From: Candidatus Anstonella stagnisolia
Lineage (GTDB): Archaea; Micrarchaeota; Micrarchaeia; Anstonellales; Anstonellaceae
Assembly (NCBI GenBank): GCA_902384585.1
Contig: CABMCJ010000001.1
Coordinates: 671-64,670 of the forward strand
Direction: 5' to 3'
Length of the DNA stretch: 64,000 nt
The translations under genes were made by a program, and so were the position numbers. Within the stretch, counting starts at the first letter, position 1. The number at the start of each line of letters is the position of its first letter. Shown piece after piece: positions 10,912-59,964 of this stretch. The notes below the pieces were generated by a model. The model was not told where the DNA came from and did no database searches. It saw only the letters and a list, made by a program, of their open reading frames with translations.

Positions 10912-11071
10912 GCTCCCATAGTCTAGCCCGGTCAAGGACGGAGCCCTCTCACAACCCTTTTTTGCGCTCCAGATGGGAACGCGCAAAAAAGCGTTGACGG
11001 AAAACCAAAAAATCGTCGGCAAAAATGGTTGGAGCAAGGCTTTAACTCGGGTTCAAATCCCGATGGGAGCG
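10912..11071 (+). tRNA. tRNA-Glu (anticodon CTC) with 85-nt intron at 37/38 (10952..11036)
   Basis: Manual fold: acceptor GCTCCCA/TGGGAGC, D stem GTCT/GGAC, anticodon stem GAGCC/GGCTT, loop CT-CTC-A|A, T arm TCGGG-TTCAAAT-CCCGA, discriminator G. The intron forms a canonical bulge-helix-bulge: central helix CTCT/GGAG, 3-nt bulges CA|c and ca|A, outer helix AACC/GGTT. Confidence 0.8.
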
Positions 11072-17714: not shown

Positions 17715-18851
17715 TTACAGCCTTCTTATTTCCCTTTCCGCGATTTTCCCGACTTTTTTCACGTCCTTTTTTTCAGAGCACACAATAAGCTTCATGCGCG
17801 CCCTGTGCGCATGCGTTAGCGACCTCACAAGCGCGCTCGCCTCCCCGATGGGCACGCTCCTTTTTCCCAAAAGCACCCTTATGGACGCCTCGCGCGCCTC
17901 CTGCGGTGGCACGTCCACAAGCACGCTGCATCCGCATTCCTGCGAAAGCACGGATTGCAGCCTTCCGCTTTTTGCAGCCAAAAGCGCTTCTTTGCCAAGC
18001 TCCCCCATCGGGACCGAATGCGCCCTCTTGTAAAGCCTCCTTGCATACAAGTCCCGCGCAAGCGTGCTTTTGTTTTCCACAAGGTGCGCAAGCAGCTGCC
18101 CATCGTCCATCTCAAGCAGCCCGTCTTCGGATATCCTGCCCTCCCCTATTTCCTCGGAGAGCGCCTGCTGCAGCATCCTGGAAGCAATCCTCACGGTATG
18201 GTGCAAATACACTGCCGCGAACATCATGAACCTCCCGACAAGAAGCGATTCGGCAGCCTCAAGCCCGCCGTGCCCAACTACGAATCTCTTTTTCTCAAGC
18301 GCGCACGTGTTGCAAATCCTCTGCGAATCTATCACGCCGTACGCAACGCCCGTATAATGTGAATCGCGCAGCAAATAGTCCATCCTGTCCGCCCCGATGT
18401 CCGAGCACACAACCTGCCCCATCCCCTTCCCCACAATGAGCTGCGCAATTTTTTTCGCAGAGAAATTCTCACCTAAAATGTCTGCAATCTCCCCCTTCAA
18501 AATCCTCCTCTGCCCTACCTGCTCGTGCGTGCCGAGGATTTCCCTTGTTACAACTTCCGCCTCGTGCGAGAATGCAACATGCCCCACGTCGTGCAGGAGC
18601 GCGGCAAGCCTAATCTGCGCAGCCTCGTCCTCGTCAAGCCCCAAATTCCTGCACATCTCCCCTGCAATGAAAAGCGTGCCTACAGAATGCTCAAAGCGGG
18701 TGTGGTTTGCCCCCGGATACACCAAATTCGCCATTGCAAGCTGGCGGATGTTGCGCAGCCTTTGCATAGGGGCGCTGTCCAGGACTTTTGCCTCAATGGA
18801 ATTCAGCCTCACGCTCCCGTGCACCGGATCCTTGATTACTATATTGTACAT
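17715..18851 (-). CDS. HD-domain phosphohydrolase (dNTP triphosphohydrolase-like)
   Basis: VIKDPVHGSVRL...QRLRNIRQL...HTRFEHSVGT...LLHDVGHVAFSH. Confidence 0.8.
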   Translation of the reverse strand: MYNIVIKDPVHGSVRLNSIEAKVLDSAPMQRLRNIRQLAMANLVYPGANHTRFEHSVGTLFIAGEMCRNLGLDEDEAAQIRLAALLHDVGHVAFSHEAEVVTREILGTHEQVGQRRILKGEIADILGENFSAKKIAQLIVGKGMGQVVCSDIGADRMDYLLRDSHYTGVAYGVIDSQRICNTCALEKKRFVVGHGGLEAAESLLVGRFMMFAAVYLHHTVRIASRMLQQALSEEIGEGRISEDGLLEMDDGQLLAHLVENKSTLARDLYARRLYKRAHSVPMGELGKEALLAAKSGRLQSVLSQECGCSVLVDVPPQEAREASIRVLLGKRSVPIGEASALVRSLTHAHRARMKLIVCSEKKDVKKVGKIAEREIRRL

Positions 18852-18867
18852 ATCCAGTCTCCTCTAC

Positions 18868-18945
18868 GCTCTCTCAAACAACCCTTTTGCTCGCTCCAGA
18901 TGGGCACGCTCGCAAAAGCGTTGACGGAAATTATGCTCTCTCAAA
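18868..18945 (+). mobile_element. Free-standing 56-nt copy of the tRNA-intron module (18879..18934) flanked by 11-bp direct repeats GCTCTCTCAAA
   Basis: CAACCCTTTTGCTCGCTCCAGATGGGCACGCTCGCAAAAGCGTTGACGGAAAT aligns almost base for base with the 5' parts of the tRNA-Glu and tRNA-Ser introns. Direct repeats lie at 18868-18878 and 18935-18945. Confidence 0.5.
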
Positions 18946-19608
18946 TACTCCCCTTCTTTTTTCTATTGCATCCCCTTTTTCGCACATGAGGTGCAGGACA
19001 ACCGTTGCGGCATCCAGCCCCAGTTTTGTTTCCCCTGCAACTTCCGAAACGCTCTTTGGCTTTGAAAGCGCACCTTCAGCCTTCTGCACGTTTTCCGAAT
19101 AGAATTTCCTTGTCGCAAGGTAATATCTCCTGTCAAATGCCCGCACCCCGAGCACGTCCCCGCTTGCAATTCTTGGTTGCAATACGCTCGCAACAAGGCG
19201 AGCCTGCAATTCGTTTTCAACAGTGCAAAAGCCGTTCTTCTCAAGTTCCGCAATAATCGGGATGTTCGGTACCTGCAAACTTTGAAAATTTGCATTCGAC
19301 CCCGCATTTTCCGCAGCCCGCATTTTTTCTTCCATTGGCACCTGCATTTTTCCATAACCCGCGGTCTTTCCCGCTTCAATTTTTGTAGCCTTCTGGAACG
19401 CATTCGTAGCTATGCTGTACACCCCTGTTTTCGCGTATTTTTTCCCGTAAAAAACGTTCACAAGCTTTTTCTTTATGAGGTTTGCAAGAATCGAAAGCTC
19501 GCCTGGCGTAAGCAACCTGTCCACTTTTTCCGGCGTCCTTTCCTCGAATTTTATTGCGGAAAGCTTTTTGAGGAGCGCGTTTTCTTCCGACACAAATTCC
19601 TGCTGCAA
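18931..19608 (-). CDS. Hypothetical protein (225 aa, TTG start as drawn)
   Basis: ORF track only; I see no recognisable motif. It is in frame with the upstream AbrB-like ORF across a single TAA. Confidence 0.5.
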   Translation of the reverse strand: MQQEFVSEENALLKKLSAIKFEERTPEKVDRLLTPGELSILANLIKKKLVNVFYGKKYAKTGVYSIATNAFQKATKIEAGKTAGYGKMQVPMEEKMRAAENAGSNANFQSLQVPNIPIIAELEKNGFCTVENELQARLVASVLQPRIASGDVLGVRAFDRRYYLATRKFYSENVQKAEGALSKPKSVSEVAGETKLGLDAATVVLHLMCEKGDAIEKRRGVFERA

Positions 19609-26097: not shown

Positions 26098-26856
26098 TTA
26101 TCGTATGTAAGTGAGGTCCTTGCTTGCGGGAGCGAGCATTTGCTGCTGCTTTGCAGCCTCGGTCTCAAGCTTTTTCATGAACTTCTCGCCCTCTTTTGCG
26201 CGCTCCTGCAGTTTCTTGGTGTCTATTTTTACGCCCAGCATTTTTGAGAGCACTCCAAGGACCGCCTGCGCGCTCTTTGCATCTACGTACGCGCCGTGCG
26301 TCTCGCCCATGAGGCACACTCCCTGCATGTCGCGCAGTTTCCCAAGCCCTAAAAGCATCCCTGCCGCGCCTATTATGGAGCCGCGCGTTTCCCCGAATAC
26401 GATTCCATACTTCTTGTATCCTGCAACGATTTTCTTGTGCGATGCGCTCCCGAAAACCTTTGGCTCGGTTGCGCTTTTTCCAAGCCCGTATCCGCCTAGC
26501 GTGATAATCTGCTTTCCCTTGTGCTTTGCAAAAAAGTCAAGCAATTTCCCCGTAACTTCGTATTGCGCTTCGGAAGTGACCGCCTGCACATCCCCCACCA
26601 AAATAAGAAGGTCGTTCTTTTTCCCCTTAATATAATAGATGCGGTTCTTGAGCATCCTAATCGCGCCGTTCTTCTGCATCACTACCTGGTGCGGGAAGTG
26701 CGGCGAATACACGTCCGCAATTTTTTCCGCCTTAAGTTCCCTCACCATATGGTCTGCCGCGAGTTTCCCCACAAGCCCGATTCCCGGCAGCCCCTCTATT
26801 AATATAGGGTTTTTTATCTTGGTTTTCTTGAGCATTACAATTGTTGTCTCTTCCAT
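26098..26856 (-). CDS. PAC2-family (proteasome assembly chaperone-like) protein
   Basis: NPILIEGLPGIGLVGKLAADHMVRELKAEKIADVYSPHFPHQV is typical of the archaeal PAC2/COG1938 family. Confidence 0.75.
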   Translation of the reverse strand: MEETTIVMLKKTKIKNPILIEGLPGIGLVGKLAADHMVRELKAEKIADVYSPHFPHQVVMQKNGAIRMLKNRIYYIKGKKNDLLILVGDVQAVTSEAQYEVTGKLLDFFAKHKGKQIITLGGYGLGKSATEPKVFGSASHKKIVAGYKKYGIVFGETRGSIIGAAGMLLGLGKLRDMQGVCLMGETHGAYVDAKSAQAVLGVLSKMLGVKIDTKKLQERAKEGEKFMKKLETEAAKQQQMLAPASKDLTYIR

Positions 26857-53449: not shown

Positions 53450-53459
53450 GGTGGCTGCC

Positions 53460-54410
53460 ATGCTCAAGCTGGCAGACTGCTCCACAGACGACAAATACGG
53501 AACCTACCCAGCGAAGCGCACAATCGAGCAAATTCTGTCTTCCTGCATCGTGATAGTGGACAAGCCCCAGGGACCCACCTCACACGAGGTTGATGCTATT
53601 GCAAAACGCCTATTGCATGCCTCAAAAAGCGGGCATGCGGGAACGCTTGACCCCCAAGTTTCCGGCGTGCTTCCAGTCGGAATAAACCGCGCAACCCCTC
53701 TTTTGCACTACCTTTCAGGCGAAAAGAAGGAATACGTGTGCCTTATGCGCTTTAAAAAGCCCCACGACGACAAATTCATCCTGAATTTGCTCAAATCGCA
53801 GGTTGGGGCCATCACACAAACCCCTCCAGCACTTTCCGCCGTGCGAAAGGTGCCCCGCAAGAGAAACATTTATTATATTGATGTGCACCAAATAAAGGAT
53901 ACCGACGTGCTTTTTAGCGTAGGATGTGAAGCAGGGACTTACATACGGACCCTTTGTTCCGACGTGGGAAAAAAATGTGGCGGAGCTTCAATGCTCGAGC
54001 TGCGTCGTATTTCCGTTGGGGGAATACGCGAGGAGACGGCGGTGAATTTGCAGGCGCTTTCGGATGCGGCATGGCTGCATTTTGAGCGCAAGGATGAGAC
54101 GAAGCTTCGTCCCCTCCTTAAACTGCCGGAGGATTTGATTACCCTCCCAAAGATGTTCATAAAAGACTCGGCGATAGAAGCAGTGTGCGCTGGCGCTCCC
54201 CTGAGCGCAAAAGGCATATGCTCGCTCTCCGAGGAAATAAGAAAGGGATTGAACTTTGCGGCATTCAGCCTCAAGGGCGAACTGGTTGCAATATGCAACT
54301 CCCTCGCCGATGCGGATGAAATCGCAAAGATGCAACAGGGCATTGTAGGGAAGCCCGTGCGCGTATGCATGCAGCGCGGCACTTACCCAAAATGCTGGCA
54401 AAAAAAGTGA
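53460..54410 (+). CDS. cbf5: tRNA/rRNA pseudouridine synthase Cbf5 (TruB family plus PUA)
   Basis: VDKPQGPTSHEV...GHAGTLDPQVSGVLPVGINRAT, with a C-terminal PUA-like region. Confidence 0.92.
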   Translation: MLKLADCSTDDKYGTYPAKRTIEQILSSCIVIVDKPQGPTSHEVDAIAKRLLHASKSGHAGTLDPQVSGVLPVGINRATPLLHYLSGEKKEYVCLMRFKKPHDDKFILNLLKSQVGAITQTPPALSAVRKVPRKRNIYYIDVHQIKDTDVLFSVGCEAGTYIRTLCSDVGKKCGGASMLELRRISVGGIREETAVNLQALSDAAWLHFERKDETKLRPLLKLPEDLITLPKMFIKDSAIEAVCAGAPLSAKGICSLSEEIRKGLNFAAFSLKGELVAICNSLADADEIAKMQQGIVGKPVRVCMQRGTYPKCWQKK

Positions 54411-54433: not shown

Positions 54434-54683
54434 GCCGGGGTCGCATAACCTGGTAGTGCGCACGCCTGGAAGAACCCTTTTGCTCGCTCCAGATTGGAGT
54501 GCCCTAACGGGCACTGCTCTCGCGAACGTTCGCGTTCGCTCGATGGGGACGCGCAAAAGCGTTGACGGAAAATCGTCAGCGGATAAGATAATGATATCCA
54601 GCAAGCGTGTGGTCGCAAGGCCGTATGGGTTCAGCGCCCCTTTCGCATGGAAAATGGCGCGCCCAAAAATCCCATTCCCGGCG
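54434..54683 (+). tRNA. tRNA-Ser (anticodon GGA) with 132-nt intron at 37/38 (54472..54603) and a putative ~34-nt T-loop intron (about 54634..54667)
   Basis: Manual fold: acceptor GCCGGGG/TCCCGGC, D stem GCAT/GTGC, anticodon stem CACGC/GCGTG, loop CT-GGA-A|A. The long variable arm is GGTC-GCAA-GGCC. The T arm ATGGG-TTCA[...]AAT-CCCAT is assembled only after removing an insert. Discriminator G. Intron 1 has the central helix CTGG/CCAG and the ca|A bulge. Intron 2 boundaries and BHB are not resolved. Confidence 0.6.
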
Positions 54684-54752: not shown

Positions 54753-55547
54753 ATGATGGAAAAAAATGAGAAGAAAGATTCGCAAATGCGCGATGACAAA
54801 AAAGACAAGGCAGCAGAAAAGGCAATCATAAAGAAGCCTTTCCAGCATCAGCAGGCTGCGCAGCAAATAATACGCGGTGCAGACGGAAAGGAAATCCGCG
54901 GCATTGTGCGCTTGGCCGGAAAGGACATCAAAGGGCAAGTTTCCCTTTCAAATTCCATCACGCGCGTGAAGGGCATTGGCACAAACCTTGCAAAAGCAAT
55001 TTCATCCATAGTTACAAAAGAGCTCGGCGTGCAGCCCAACACGATGGTGGGCGAACTCGACGAGAAGCAGGTAGGCAGGCTTGAGTACGTTCTCTCGCAC
55101 CCCTCAGAATTTGGAGTTCCTTCTTTCATGCTCAACCGCCAAAAAGACATTGAGACAGGCGAGGACATCCACCTCATAGGCACGGACCTTACATACCGCA
55201 CGCAGCAGGACGTCGGATTGCAGAGGGACATTTACACATGGCGCGGCTACCGCCATGCATACGGGCAAAAAGTTCGCGGACAGCGAACGCGCACAACCGG
55301 CAGGACCGGAATGACAGTCGGAGTTCTCAGGAAAAGCATTATGGCAAAGGCAGGCGGCGCGGCAGCCGCAACAACAGGTGCAGCAGCACAGGCAGCAGGC
55401 GCAGCTCCAGTCCCTGGGGCAAAGCCGGCAGCAGGTGCAGCTCCCAAGGCAGCAGCCCCTGCAGCAGGCGCAAAGCCGGCAGCAGGTGCAGCCCCCAAGG
55501 CAGCCGCAGCAGCAAAGCCAGCAGCAAAGCCTGCGGAGAAAAAATAA
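54753..55547 (+). CDS. rps13: Ribosomal protein uS13 with N-terminal (~45 aa) and A/K/P-rich C-terminal (~60 aa) extensions
   Basis: IVRLAGKDIKGQVSLSNSITRVKGIGTNLAKAI...YRHAYGQKVRGQRTRTTGR. The tail is AAGAAPVPGAKPAAGAAPKAAAPAAGAKPAAGAAPKAAAAAKPAAKPAEKK. Confidence 0.92.
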   Translation: MMEKNEKKDSQMRDDKKDKAAEKAIIKKPFQHQQAAQQIIRGADGKEIRGIVRLAGKDIKGQVSLSNSITRVKGIGTNLAKAISSIVTKELGVQPNTMVGELDEKQVGRLEYVLSHPSEFGVPSFMLNRQKDIETGEDIHLIGTDLTYRTQQDVGLQRDIYTWRGYRHAYGQKVRGQRTRTTGRTGMTVGVLRKSIMAKAGGAAAATTGAAAQAAGAAPVPGAKPAAGAAPKAAAPAAGAKPAAGAAPKAAAAAKPAAKPAEKK

Positions 55548-56135: not shown

Positions 56136-56783
56136 ATGGCAGAGAACGAAGAAAAAAAACACGAGAAAAAAACACAAGTTGCAAAGGAAACAAAGCACGC
56201 TGAAAAAACCGCAGCCCATGCAACGCCGGCAAACGCACCGGCGCAAAATGCTCCGGCAGCAGCAGGCGCAGCACCCTCCGCTCCAACAGCAACACCTGCA
56301 ACTTCAACTTCTGCTCCGGCAGGCGCGGCCACAACTGCTGGTGCAGCAACGCCTGCAGCAGGCGCAGCACCCTCCACGATTCCACCATACAAGCGCGGCC
56401 CCCTGAAATGGGCAATTGCGCACGTGTATTCCTCAAAGAACGACACAATAATCACTATAACCGACCTCTCAGGCGCAGAGACAATCTCAAAGGCATCAGG
56501 CGGGATGATTGTGAAGGCTGACAGGGAGGAAGGAAAGCCCTATGCAGCAATGCAGGCTGCAATAAAGGCGGTCGAAGGCGCAAAGAACCGCGGCATAACC
56601 GGATTGCACATCCGCATACGCGCACCGGGCGGGCACGGCTCGCTCACTCCAGGCGCAGGCGCGCAATCAGTTGTGCGCACAACCGCGAGGATGGGAGTTC
56701 GCGTAGGAAAGATAGAGGACGTTACCCCGACGCCGACTGACACTACAAAGAGGCCAGGCGGCAGGCGCGGCAGGCGTGTATAA
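56136..56783 (+). CDS. rps11: Ribosomal protein uS11 with ~95-aa K/E then A/P/T-rich N-terminal extension
   Basis: Core is [33 protein letters not shown]...[11 protein letters not shown]. The ATG at 56136 follows AGGTGAT; the ORF-track start at 56058 overlaps uS4. Confidence 0.92.
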
Positions 56784-59208: not shown

Positions 59209-59964
59209 ATGAGCGAAAAAGAAAGCATGCTGATAAAGCAGGAAAAATACCTTGAAGCAGGCATCCACATCGGCACAAAGCTGAAAGTAGTGGACATGAA
59301 CCGCTTCATTTACCGCGCACGCAGCGACGGGCTGTTTGTGCTTGACCTTCGCAAGGTGGACGAGCGCATACGCATGGCAGGCAAAATGCTCTCCGCGTAC
59401 GACCCAAAAGACATCGTAATAGTCGCATCGCGCACATACTCCACAAACGCAGCCTCAAAGTTCGCGCAGGTTACAGGCGCGCGCCTCATGGCAGGCAGGG
59501 TTGTCCCAGGCACCTTCACAAACGTGCACCGCGACGACTTCACAGAGCCAAAACTCCTTTTCACGTGCGATCCAAAGGGCGAACGACAGGCAGTGCTTGA
59601 GGCAGGCAAGATGGGCATTCCCACAATCGGCCTTTGCGACACTGACAACTACACCTCTTACCTTGACTGGGTAATCCCGTGCAACAACAAGGGGCGCCGC
59701 TCGCTCGCTCTCATATTCTACCTTCTTGCGCGCGAAATGGCAATGAGCACAGGGAAAATCTCCTCATACGACGAGTTCAAGGCAACCCTTGAGGAATTCG
59801 AAACCCCAGAGAAAACAGAGGAGGAAAAGCAGGCAGCAGCAGCCGCGGCAGCAGAAGTTGCCGCAGCTTCAGCCGCCCCTGCAGCAGAAAGCCCTGCTGC
59901 TGACGAGGGAATCGAAATAAAGAACGAAAAGAAAGTTGAGGCAGAAGGGGAAGAAAAAGAATAA
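59209..59964 (+). CDS. rps2: Ribosomal protein uS2 with acidic/Ala-rich tail
   Basis: KYLEAGIHIGTKLKVVDMNRFIYRARSDGLFVLDLRK. The ATG at 59209 follows GAGGT; the ORF-track start at 59002 overlaps tRNA-Pro. Confidence 0.93.
   Translation: MSEKESMLIKQEKYLEAGIHIGTKLKVVDMNRFIYRARSDGLFVLDLRKVDERIRMAGKMLSAYDPKDIVIVASRTYSTNAASKFAQVTGARLMAGRVVPGTFTNVHRDDFTEPKLLFTCDPKGERQAVLEAGKMGIPTIGLCDTDNYTSYLDWVIPCNNKGRRSLALIFYLLAREMAMSTGKISSYDEFKATLEEFETPEKTEEEKQAAAAAAAEVAAASAAPAAESPAADEGIEIKNEKKVEAEGEEKE

Follow-up and report, generated by a model that had tools for sequence, protein, structure and literature searches.

Why should the anticodon-loop introns of two different transfer RNA (tRNA) genes begin with the same structured sequence? 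The question arises from a stretch of 64,000 nucleotides from Candidatus Anstonella stagnisolia (GenBank assembly GCA_902384585.1, contig CABMCJ010000001.1, positions 671 to 64,670; hereafter the window), in which the introns of tRNA-Glu(CUC) and tRNA-Ser(GGA) both open with a core of ~52 nt composed of AACCC, a hairpin (stem A), and GCGTTNACGGAAA. This module had been pointed out in a first-pass annotation made from the letters of the window, and all the sequence blocks that it listed as shared by the two introns are present. It offered three functions, namely a mobility determinant, a stable RNA, and a protein-binding site. Mobility is favored by presence or absence of the module in relatives, a target duplication with empty sites, and the occupation of many tRNA loops, while truncated, antisense intergenic, and heavily expanded copies fit poorly with the other two. 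We consider it probable that this module forms the conserved 5′ core of a selfish, structured bulge-helix-bulge (BHB) intron element that is repeated, mobile, and specific to Micrarchaeota, which belong to DPANN. One copy in the window was inserted into intergenic DNA with a 15-bp target duplication.

Copies of the module inside and outside tRNA genes

The inserted copy (copy 2), missed in the first-pass annotation, sits in a 79-nt spacer of the open reading frame map between two minus-strand genes, which encode an HD-domain protein (17715–18851) and a 225-amino-acid protein (18931–19608), and is antisense to both. It ends at ACGGAAAT and lacks the stem B partner strand and the closing helix described below. 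The repeats on either side are identical at 13 of 15 positions, with 11 nt exact, and in each the final codons and a stop of the upstream gene are encoded; gene 18931–19608 now ends in a new TAA stop at 18931–18933. Through homologues of the HD-domain protein, we fetched the orthologous site in three relatives (L074 and L075, at 88% amino acid identity, and L076, at 71%; retrieved sequences are denoted by L and a number). In all three, the site is uninterrupted, the module is absent, and the target sequence is present once, and in the two where both genes were called (L074 and L076) the HD gene and its neighbor are 3–12 nt apart. The filled site compared with these empty ones therefore shows that the 52-nt module was inserted with a duplication of ~15 bp. 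Flanking direct repeats of 9–16 nt also occur at the non-tRNA copies L039, L073:1680, L023, and L017. The flanking repeat usually begins directly after GGAAA(A), and three of the five repeat-flanked copies have target sequence immediately downstream of the repeat that is similar to the module start, AAC(C)C...TTTT.

To gather the wider family, we scanned with two exact-match patterns, in each of which about half of the core was fixed. Scanning one genome per GTDB species with the 5′ half returned 28 loci, 27 of them true and found in 14 Micrarchaeota assemblies and one a chance match; scanning metagenomes of the Joint Genome Institute with the 3′ half returned 43, including two chance matches. 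L013, L043, and L047 were discarded as chance matches since the other module half is missing. A profile search over all fetched sequence added further copies. Removal of duplicates left 62 non-redundant copies, spread over no fewer than 14 Micrarchaeota assemblies and numerous metagenome contigs, so that gene conversion private to the Glu and Ser genes, which the first-pass annotation had named as a possible source of the similarity, is excluded. A viral origin was rejected, as the viral contig collection gave 0 matches with either pattern. For the window, we used an nhmmer profile and a covariance model built from the module core (R1), and R1 run with filters off found three copies only; a 21-nt piece of the module occurs three times there against 0.01 occurrences expected by chance. 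The family had not been recognized from the sequence, and comparison with Rfam agrees: no family matches the module in a gathering-threshold scan of Rfam 15, a permissive scan of the two intron regions (E up to 10) gave noise only, and the whole window contains no relevant family at E up to 0.05.

Thirty-six copies lie in the anticodon loop (position 37/38), seven in the D-loop, seven in the T-loop, and the remaining 12 outside tRNA genes. Each of the 50 tRNA copies runs in the sense of its tRNA, and AACCC starts 1–2 nt after the 5′ splice site (splice sites throughout are predicted), which is where the outer helix of the BHB motif begins. About 16 isoacceptors host the module: Leu CAG/TAA, Gln TTG/CTG, Gly TCC, Ala TGC/GGC, Arg CCT, Lys TTT, Glu CTC/TTC, Asp, Ile, Tyr, Ser, and Val. 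Removing the module introns restores a canonical tRNA for Glu, for Ser (once both of its introns are removed), and for other family members. A single tRNA-Leu(UAA) gene (L005:5400–5620) holds two module copies, at 37/38 and in the T-loop, and two tRNA-Tyr genes carry one or two. In L055, tRNA-Tyr has three introns, of which the one at 37/38 contains a divergent copy and the one in the T-loop a standard copy. Two further arrangements are odd: a module-bearing tRNA-Gln(CUG) has unrelated sequence in place of its 5′ half (L046:1300–1480), and behind a D-loop copy come a truncated tRNA body and the start of another tRNA (L027:7130–7260). Pseudogenes, split tRNAs, and breaks in the assembly at the repeat are candidate explanations. 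Both intron-containing tRNA genes of the window are missed by default ARAGORN and by the Rfam gathering scan. When introns are allowed, ARAGORN finds the Glu gene with its 85-nt intron but labels it Ala(agc), and brute-force splicing of 10912–11071 yields tRNA-Glu(ctc).

Comparison of orthologous tRNA genes shows that module copies are gained, lost, or swapped between close relatives. The tRNA-Ser gene of the window lies directly downstream of cbf5 (53451–54410), whose homologues place the host in Micrarchaeota, and upstream of rps13, and orthologues lie downstream of Cbf5 in L001, L002, L021, L041, and L065. The module is present in the window, L065, L041, and L021 and absent from L001, where the 3′ end of cbf5 is 78% identical to that of the window and tRNA-Ser has only an 18-nt intron, AGGAATTGCATTCCAGCA. 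Since the layout of this short intron is that of the last 23 nt of the window Ser intron, the comparison suggests that at the Ser locus a mini-intron already existed and took up the module at its 5′ end. L065 is closer to the window (3′ end of cbf5 96%, 5′ exon 100%, and 3′ exon with the T-loop intron 97% identical), yet its 37/38 intron is an 85-nt version with stem A GAGCGC/GCGCTC, no expansion, and a different 3′ part. The tRNA-Glu orthologue in L080, called as tRNA-Glu(ctc), has a 63-nt intron in which stem A is shifted compensatorily (UGCGCC/GGCGCA) and stem B is absent. For tRNA-Gln(TTG), L011 has no intron and L010 has the module. Synteny around tRNA-Glu in the closest AspRS relatives (L077–L079, 92% amino acid identity) was uninformative, as the corresponding region is rearranged and contains no tRNA-Glu.

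Structure of the core and its expansions

The 52-nt core consists of AACCC, a stem A of 10–11 bp capped by UCC-AGAU-GGG, and then GCGUUNACGGAAA. Thirty-seven distinct uninterrupted cores align gap-free, with 33 of the 52 columns invariant. Across stem A and its UCC/GGG cap, 90.9% of cells are paired, and five pairs have changes on both sides (31 cells). The covariation score of stem A is 0.160, compared to 0.045 for shuffled alignments (0 of 500 reach the observed value) and 0.001–0.074 for slid partners; a statistical test of covariation, called for at the outset, thus strongly supports this stem. Its varying columns (10–13 and 31–34) were wildcards in both search patterns, and the covariation is therefore no artefact of ascertainment. 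Stem A occurs in at least 12 variants, the commonest with a symmetric UC/UC internal loop. An alternative fold, with an ACGCU/AGCGU hairpin and an extended terminal helix, was rejected: its columns are invariant, it has no covariation, and the one informative sequence breaks it.

Stems A and B had both been predicted for the window introns, and both are in the minimum-free-energy folds, with the GTTGACG strand of stem B paired with CGTCGGC in Glu and with CGTCAGC in Ser. The partner strand of stem B is found in only 15 of 61 copies (N44 is complementary in 15 of 15), a subset to which both window introns belong, so stem B is correct and covaries where it is present, but is optional. A closing helix can form between AACCCUUU and AAAGGGUU and reaches at least 8 bp in 17 of 50 tRNA copies, in 0 of 12 non-tRNA copies, and in 1.5% of shuffles; where present, it forms the outer helix of the BHB motif. 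In the window, AACCC at 10953–10957 and 54473–54477 is also complementary to the T-stem/T-loop GGGTT of the same tRNAs (11050–11054 and 54627–54631), and in copies that lack the closing helix the T-arm GGGTT is the best downstream partner of AACCC. Folds, covariation, and the 62-copy family all agree with the description of the module as a conserved structured unit.

The Glu splice motif is of the 3-4-3 form, with a central helix CUCU/GGAG, bulges CAC and CAA, and an outer helix AACC/GGUU. Its intron folds at −28.2 kcal/mol (z = −3.0, or −3.9 with the anticodon stem). The motif of the first Ser intron has a central helix CUGG/CCAG of 4–5 bp and a 3′ bulge CAA, and is classed as relaxed because the outer helix is absent; this intron folds at −56 kcal/mol (z = −4.25), and with the anticodon stem in the pre-tRNA context z reaches −5.0. 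The Ser stem A is imperfect, with TTTTGC-TC-GC against GC-GCAAAA and a 2-nt bulge. The 5′ half of the Ser copy (copy 3) corresponds to positions 1–27 of the nhmmer profile and is also recorded as repeat family D12; the 3′ half corresponds to positions 11–51 and scores 25.4 bits with R1. Features of the window are collected in Table 1.

Between these halves lies a 44-nt expansion of loop A, which has the hairpin AGTGCCC-TAAC-GGGCACT and the GATTGG/GATGGG brackets that the first-pass annotation described. That hairpin stands. The second half, described as a 14-nt palindrome, folds better as GCGAACG-UUCG-CGUUCGC with a UUCG tetraloop, and the pairing of this hairpin is kept by a compensatory change in L067 (GCAAACG/CGTTTGC), whereas that of the palindrome is not. 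The expansion had also been seen as an insertion nested in this gene, but the same expanded variant recurs in intergenic copies of other genomes (L073:958 and L050:4223, the latter from L050/L036) and is therefore a trait of a subfamily, not private to tRNA-Ser. A variant in which the first hairpin is GCAACC-UUCG-GGUUGC is found in L042, L073:1680, and L067. The Ser-type expansion is one of several hairpin-expanded subfamilies; others have a two-hairpin insert in the 3′ strand of stem A (L008, L012, L020, and L021) or inserts after the core (L029, L011, and L006), and many of the added hairpins are capped by UUCG-type loops.

Small perfect hairpins, often with UUCG or CUCG loops, are found inside copies at L029:6100–6200 (minus strand), L011:640–780, L008, L012, L020, and L021, and an 11-nt duplication, GTTCACGGAAA, borders the one inserted in L029. 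Such inserts suggest that a separate hairpin-generating or hairpin-inserting process acts on module copies. The second, T-loop intron of the window tRNA-Ser is 97% identical in L065, and L001 has a different intron of ~95 nt at the same position. Longer conserved T-loop introns are found in tRNA-Ser (L001:2929–3024) and tRNA-Tyr (L028, minus strand, about 230–330) of relatives, and at the same position in other tRNAs of L018 and L030. Their common pattern (…TAGGGGGAAC…TTCCCGAA…TCCCCCTAAG…CACCCCCTCTTCG…) looks like a second shared intron family in Micrarchaeota.

Away from the module, the ribosomal protein S13 gene (54753–55547) encodes a long, low-complexity C-terminal tail rich in Ala, Pro, and Lys, with imperfect 51-nt repeats; similar Ala-rich repeats occur in neighboring genes, and repeats lie at 55344–55532, 56219–56378, and 59833–59883. 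A sub-threshold Rfam match to RAGATH-21 on the minus strand at 26125–26210 (32.6 bits against a gathering threshold of 70.3; E = 0.043) is probably due to chance.

Table 1. Module copies, tRNA genes, and associated features of the window (positions are those of the 64,000-nt stretch).
Feature	Position	Strand	Basis or remark
tRNA-Glu(CUC) gene, one intron	10912–11071	+	Rfam tRNA model, 43.3 bits
Glu intron, 85 nt, position 37/38	10952–11036	+	Strict hBHBh′ motif, read from sequence
Module core copy 1 (Glu)	10953–11004	+	R1 80.7 bits; nhmmer E = 1.6e-16
Glu stem A, TTTTTTGCGC/GCGCAAAAAA	10958–10967 / 10981–10990
Glu stem B	10993–10999 / 11014–11020
Left target duplication, TACGCTCTCTCAAAC	18865–18879	.	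Relic of original 3′ end and stop codon of minus-strand gene 18931–19608
Module core copy 2, intergenic, outside tRNA genes	18880–18931	+	R1 78.6 bits
Right target duplication, TATGCTCTCTCAAAT	18932–18946	.	Encodes present last codons of gene 18931–19608
tRNA-Ser(GGA) gene, two introns	54434–54683	+	ARAGORN tRNA-Ser(gga) once both introns are removed
Ser intron 1, 132 nt, position 37/38	54472–54603	+	Relaxed hBH-type motif
Module core copy 3, 5′ half: AACCC, stem A 5′ strand (54478–54487), then TCCAGATTGG	54473–54497	+
Loop-A expansion, 44 nt	54498–54541	+	Fold; also found in non-tRNA copies elsewhere
Module core copy 3, 3′ half: GATGGGGAC, stem A 3′ strand (54551–54558), stem B (54561–54567/54574–54580)	54542–54580	+
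Ser intron 1, 3′ remainder, GGATAAGATAATGATATCCAGCA	54581–54603	+	Layout like the whole 18-nt L001 intron
Ser intron 2, T-loop, ~34 nt, unrelated to module	~54634–54667	+	Bounds ±1–3 nt (A run)

Movement of the module and competing explanations

If the module is a selfish intron element, it would be transcribed within the pre-tRNA, and its compact, self-contained fold would leave the splice motif accessible. By analogy with the enzymology of Ca. Micrarchaeum acidiphilum ARMAN-2, the intron would be removed by a broad-specificity tRNA splicing endonuclease and ligase, with the exons joined by RtcB, and as it is spliced out its cost to the host would be low. The near-invariance of the core would then arise because only intact copies propagate, and not from any need of the host for the RNA.

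Several observations weigh against this account. The invariant columns include unpaired ones, a pattern that an RNA or protein-binding function at the level of the host could explain equally well, and the core is shared by hosts whose orthologous HD-domain protein appears to be only about 50% identical. In addition, tRNA copies carry a 3′ segment complementary to the upstream exon, as the splice motif requires, and a simple insertion would not supply it. Clear flanking repeats are present at only five of about 12 non-tRNA copies. Collection by exact patterns exaggerates the apparent conservation and misses divergent members, and the sequences come mostly from metagenome-assembled genomes and metagenome contigs. 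We considered the target duplication as the source of the exon-complementary segment, but this works only for near-palindromic targets, Leu(CAG) and the D-loop TCGA, and fails for Glu, Ser, Gln, and the T-loop. Copies may arise by insertion into pre-existing introns, by microhomology-driven templated insertion, or through an RNA-derived intermediate with its 5′ end at the splice site.

A tentative form of the last route, to which we attach a modest chance, is that the splicing endonuclease and ligase, or else target-primed copying, place an excised BHB intron or its single-stranded copy at new sites. Several features hint at propagation through RNA. The left boundary invariably falls on the opening bases of the intron RNA, and none of the 50 tRNA copies is antisense. 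Copies outside tRNA genes stop at the A-rich GGAAA(A) loop. The length of the target duplications ranges between 9 and 16 bp, and the copies so flanked lack inverted termini, with no transposase in sight. The variable-length duplications, the boundary at an RNA end, and the A-rich 3′ junction are compatible with retroposon-like insertion. If this is true, the element would be an archaeal “introner” dependent on the tRNA-splicing machinery.

On one hand, the module could be an RNA that serves the host, either an intron-derived, stable, and possibly circular RNA or a protein-binding platform, with its spread being secondary. The near-invariance of the unpaired UCCAGAUGGG and AAGCGUUNACGGAAA across distant hosts, the covariation of stem A, and the RNA-type UUCG tetraloops of the expansions are what such a function would predict, and excised archaeal introns can circularize. 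However, close relatives retain the same tRNA without the module, copies are few per genome with tRNAs and positions changing, and loop A, the 3′ strand of stem A, and the region after the core all accommodate large insertions. Intergenic copies can be truncated, and one is antisense to its neighboring genes. Box C (RUGAUGA) and box D (CUGA) are absent from both introns, copy 2, and the family consensus, and no Rfam family matches. We therefore regard a host function as unlikely; identity as a box C/D or H/ACA guide RNA was rejected, as no boxes are present.

On the other hand, the module could be a classical DNA transposon derivative, a miniature inverted-repeat transposable element (MITE) that moves non-autonomously by cut-and-paste or copy-paste, with AACCCTTTTGC/GCAAAAGGGTT as terminal inverted repeats and a transposase acting in trans, and whose copies survive mainly in tRNA loops since they are spliced out there. 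Full-length copies with inverted termini of 8–11 bp exist, as do target duplications with an empty site, and a close relative has a DDE transposase gene next to AspRS (L077:5618–6763; Pfam DDE_Tnp_1 and DDE_5, ISC1217-like). Yet the copies with target duplications lack the right-hand repeat, and duplication length is not fixed (9–16 nt), both of which argue against a classical MITE with a transposase. Inverted repeats of at least 8 bp are also confined to the 17 tRNA copies with a closing helix, 81% of copies are in tRNA genes, which make up less than ~1% of a genome, and the tRNA copies are without exception in sense and at the 5′ splice site. A link to the L077 transposase was rejected, as the ends of that insertion sequence share only an 8-mer with the module and there are no convincing shared termini. 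The genes next to non-tRNA copies resemble housekeeping genes, and no transposase was seen near module copies, with neighboring open reading frames not scanned against Pfam and whole genomes not searched. A transposon of this kind is in our view quite improbable. Least plausible of all, and scarcely credible, is that the module is not mobile but an ancient, vertically inherited intron homogenized between a few tRNA genes by gene conversion. Orthologous tRNA-Ser, tRNA-Glu, tRNA-Leu(CAG), and tRNA-Tyr genes do carry it in several genomes. Against this stand the three tRNA loops and about 16 isoacceptors without common flanking homology, the intergenic copies, the target duplication and the empty sites in relatives, and the different module versions at the near-identical loci of L065 and the window.

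Related systems and what the family means for tRNA introns

The first-pass annotation took introns of different tRNAs to be normally unrelated, which is overstated: near-identical introns in different tRNAs of Thermoproteales are described in PMC4090602. These “transposing” tRNA introns (Fujishima et al. 2010, Mol Biol Evol 27:2233, as summarized in PMC4090602 and PMC10714607) share near-identical sequences across different tRNAs and positions, and the reviews describe the mechanism as unknown (PMC4090602 and PMC10714607). They are the closest precedent, and by analogy the Micrarchaeota element is best read as their DPANN counterpart. In both, similar BHB introns occupy different isoacceptors in canonical as well as non-canonical positions, which in Thermoproteales was read as recent gain by transposition, and the module likewise has a near-identical sequence in about 16 isoacceptors at three loop positions, with presence or absence at orthologous tRNA genes. 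The Thermoproteales introns differ in phylum from the element, which belongs to Micrarchaeota. The element also differs from them in its defined core of 52 nt, whose hairpin covaries, in a second hairpin and a closing helix that are both optional, in its hairpin-expanded subfamilies, and in occurring outside tRNA genes as well, where target duplications and empty sites are documented.

Within the same phylum, ARMAN-2 has many non-canonical tRNA introns, and its epsilon2 endonuclease cuts strict and relaxed BHB motifs (PMC3239211). As in the window, introns at 37/38 and in the T-loop are reported, and strict hBHBh′ (Glu) and relaxed hBH (Ser) motifs are both represented. In contrast, the introns described for ARMAN-2 are short (13–25 nt), and the available part of that paper mentions no shared intron sequence family; ARMAN-2 was not returned by the exact-pattern module scans. 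In Caldiarchaeum subterraneum, intron gain in tRNA-Thr involved a 1.8-kb recombinase-encoding insertion (PMC3293823). There too, intron presence or absence, at the population level, was attributed to a mobile element, but the module is far shorter (52–110 nt) and non-coding. Our literature search found no paper describing the Micrarchaeota module family.

Two further systems offer partial parallels. A box C/D small RNA is encoded in the intron of archaeal pre-tRNA-Trp and is, like the module, a conserved structured RNA inside an anticodon-loop intron; unlike it, the module is not tied to a single tRNA and matches no small nucleolar or small RNA family in Rfam. Eukaryotic introners are short repeated elements that occur in many introns, are removed by host splicing, and leave target duplications, features that the module shares by analogy and not by membership. 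Introners are described as transposon-derived spliceosomal introns (PMC11282704), whereas the module would depend on a protein endonuclease acting on BHB motifs, is far smaller, is hosted by tRNA genes, and has no known link to a transposase.

How archaea acquire tRNA introns, especially those at non-canonical positions, is an open question, and this family gives an unusually direct view of it. To the Thermoproteales case, it adds a searchable structured core, many independent insertions in three tRNA loops, pairs of filled and empty sites, and insertion footprints in ordinary DNA. The mechanism becomes testable as a choice among a DNA transposase, template switching, and an RNA intermediate using the splicing endonuclease and ligase. 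Because standard tRNA finders miss or mislabel module-bearing genes, the tRNA complements of DPANN metagenome-assembled genomes are likely under-called.

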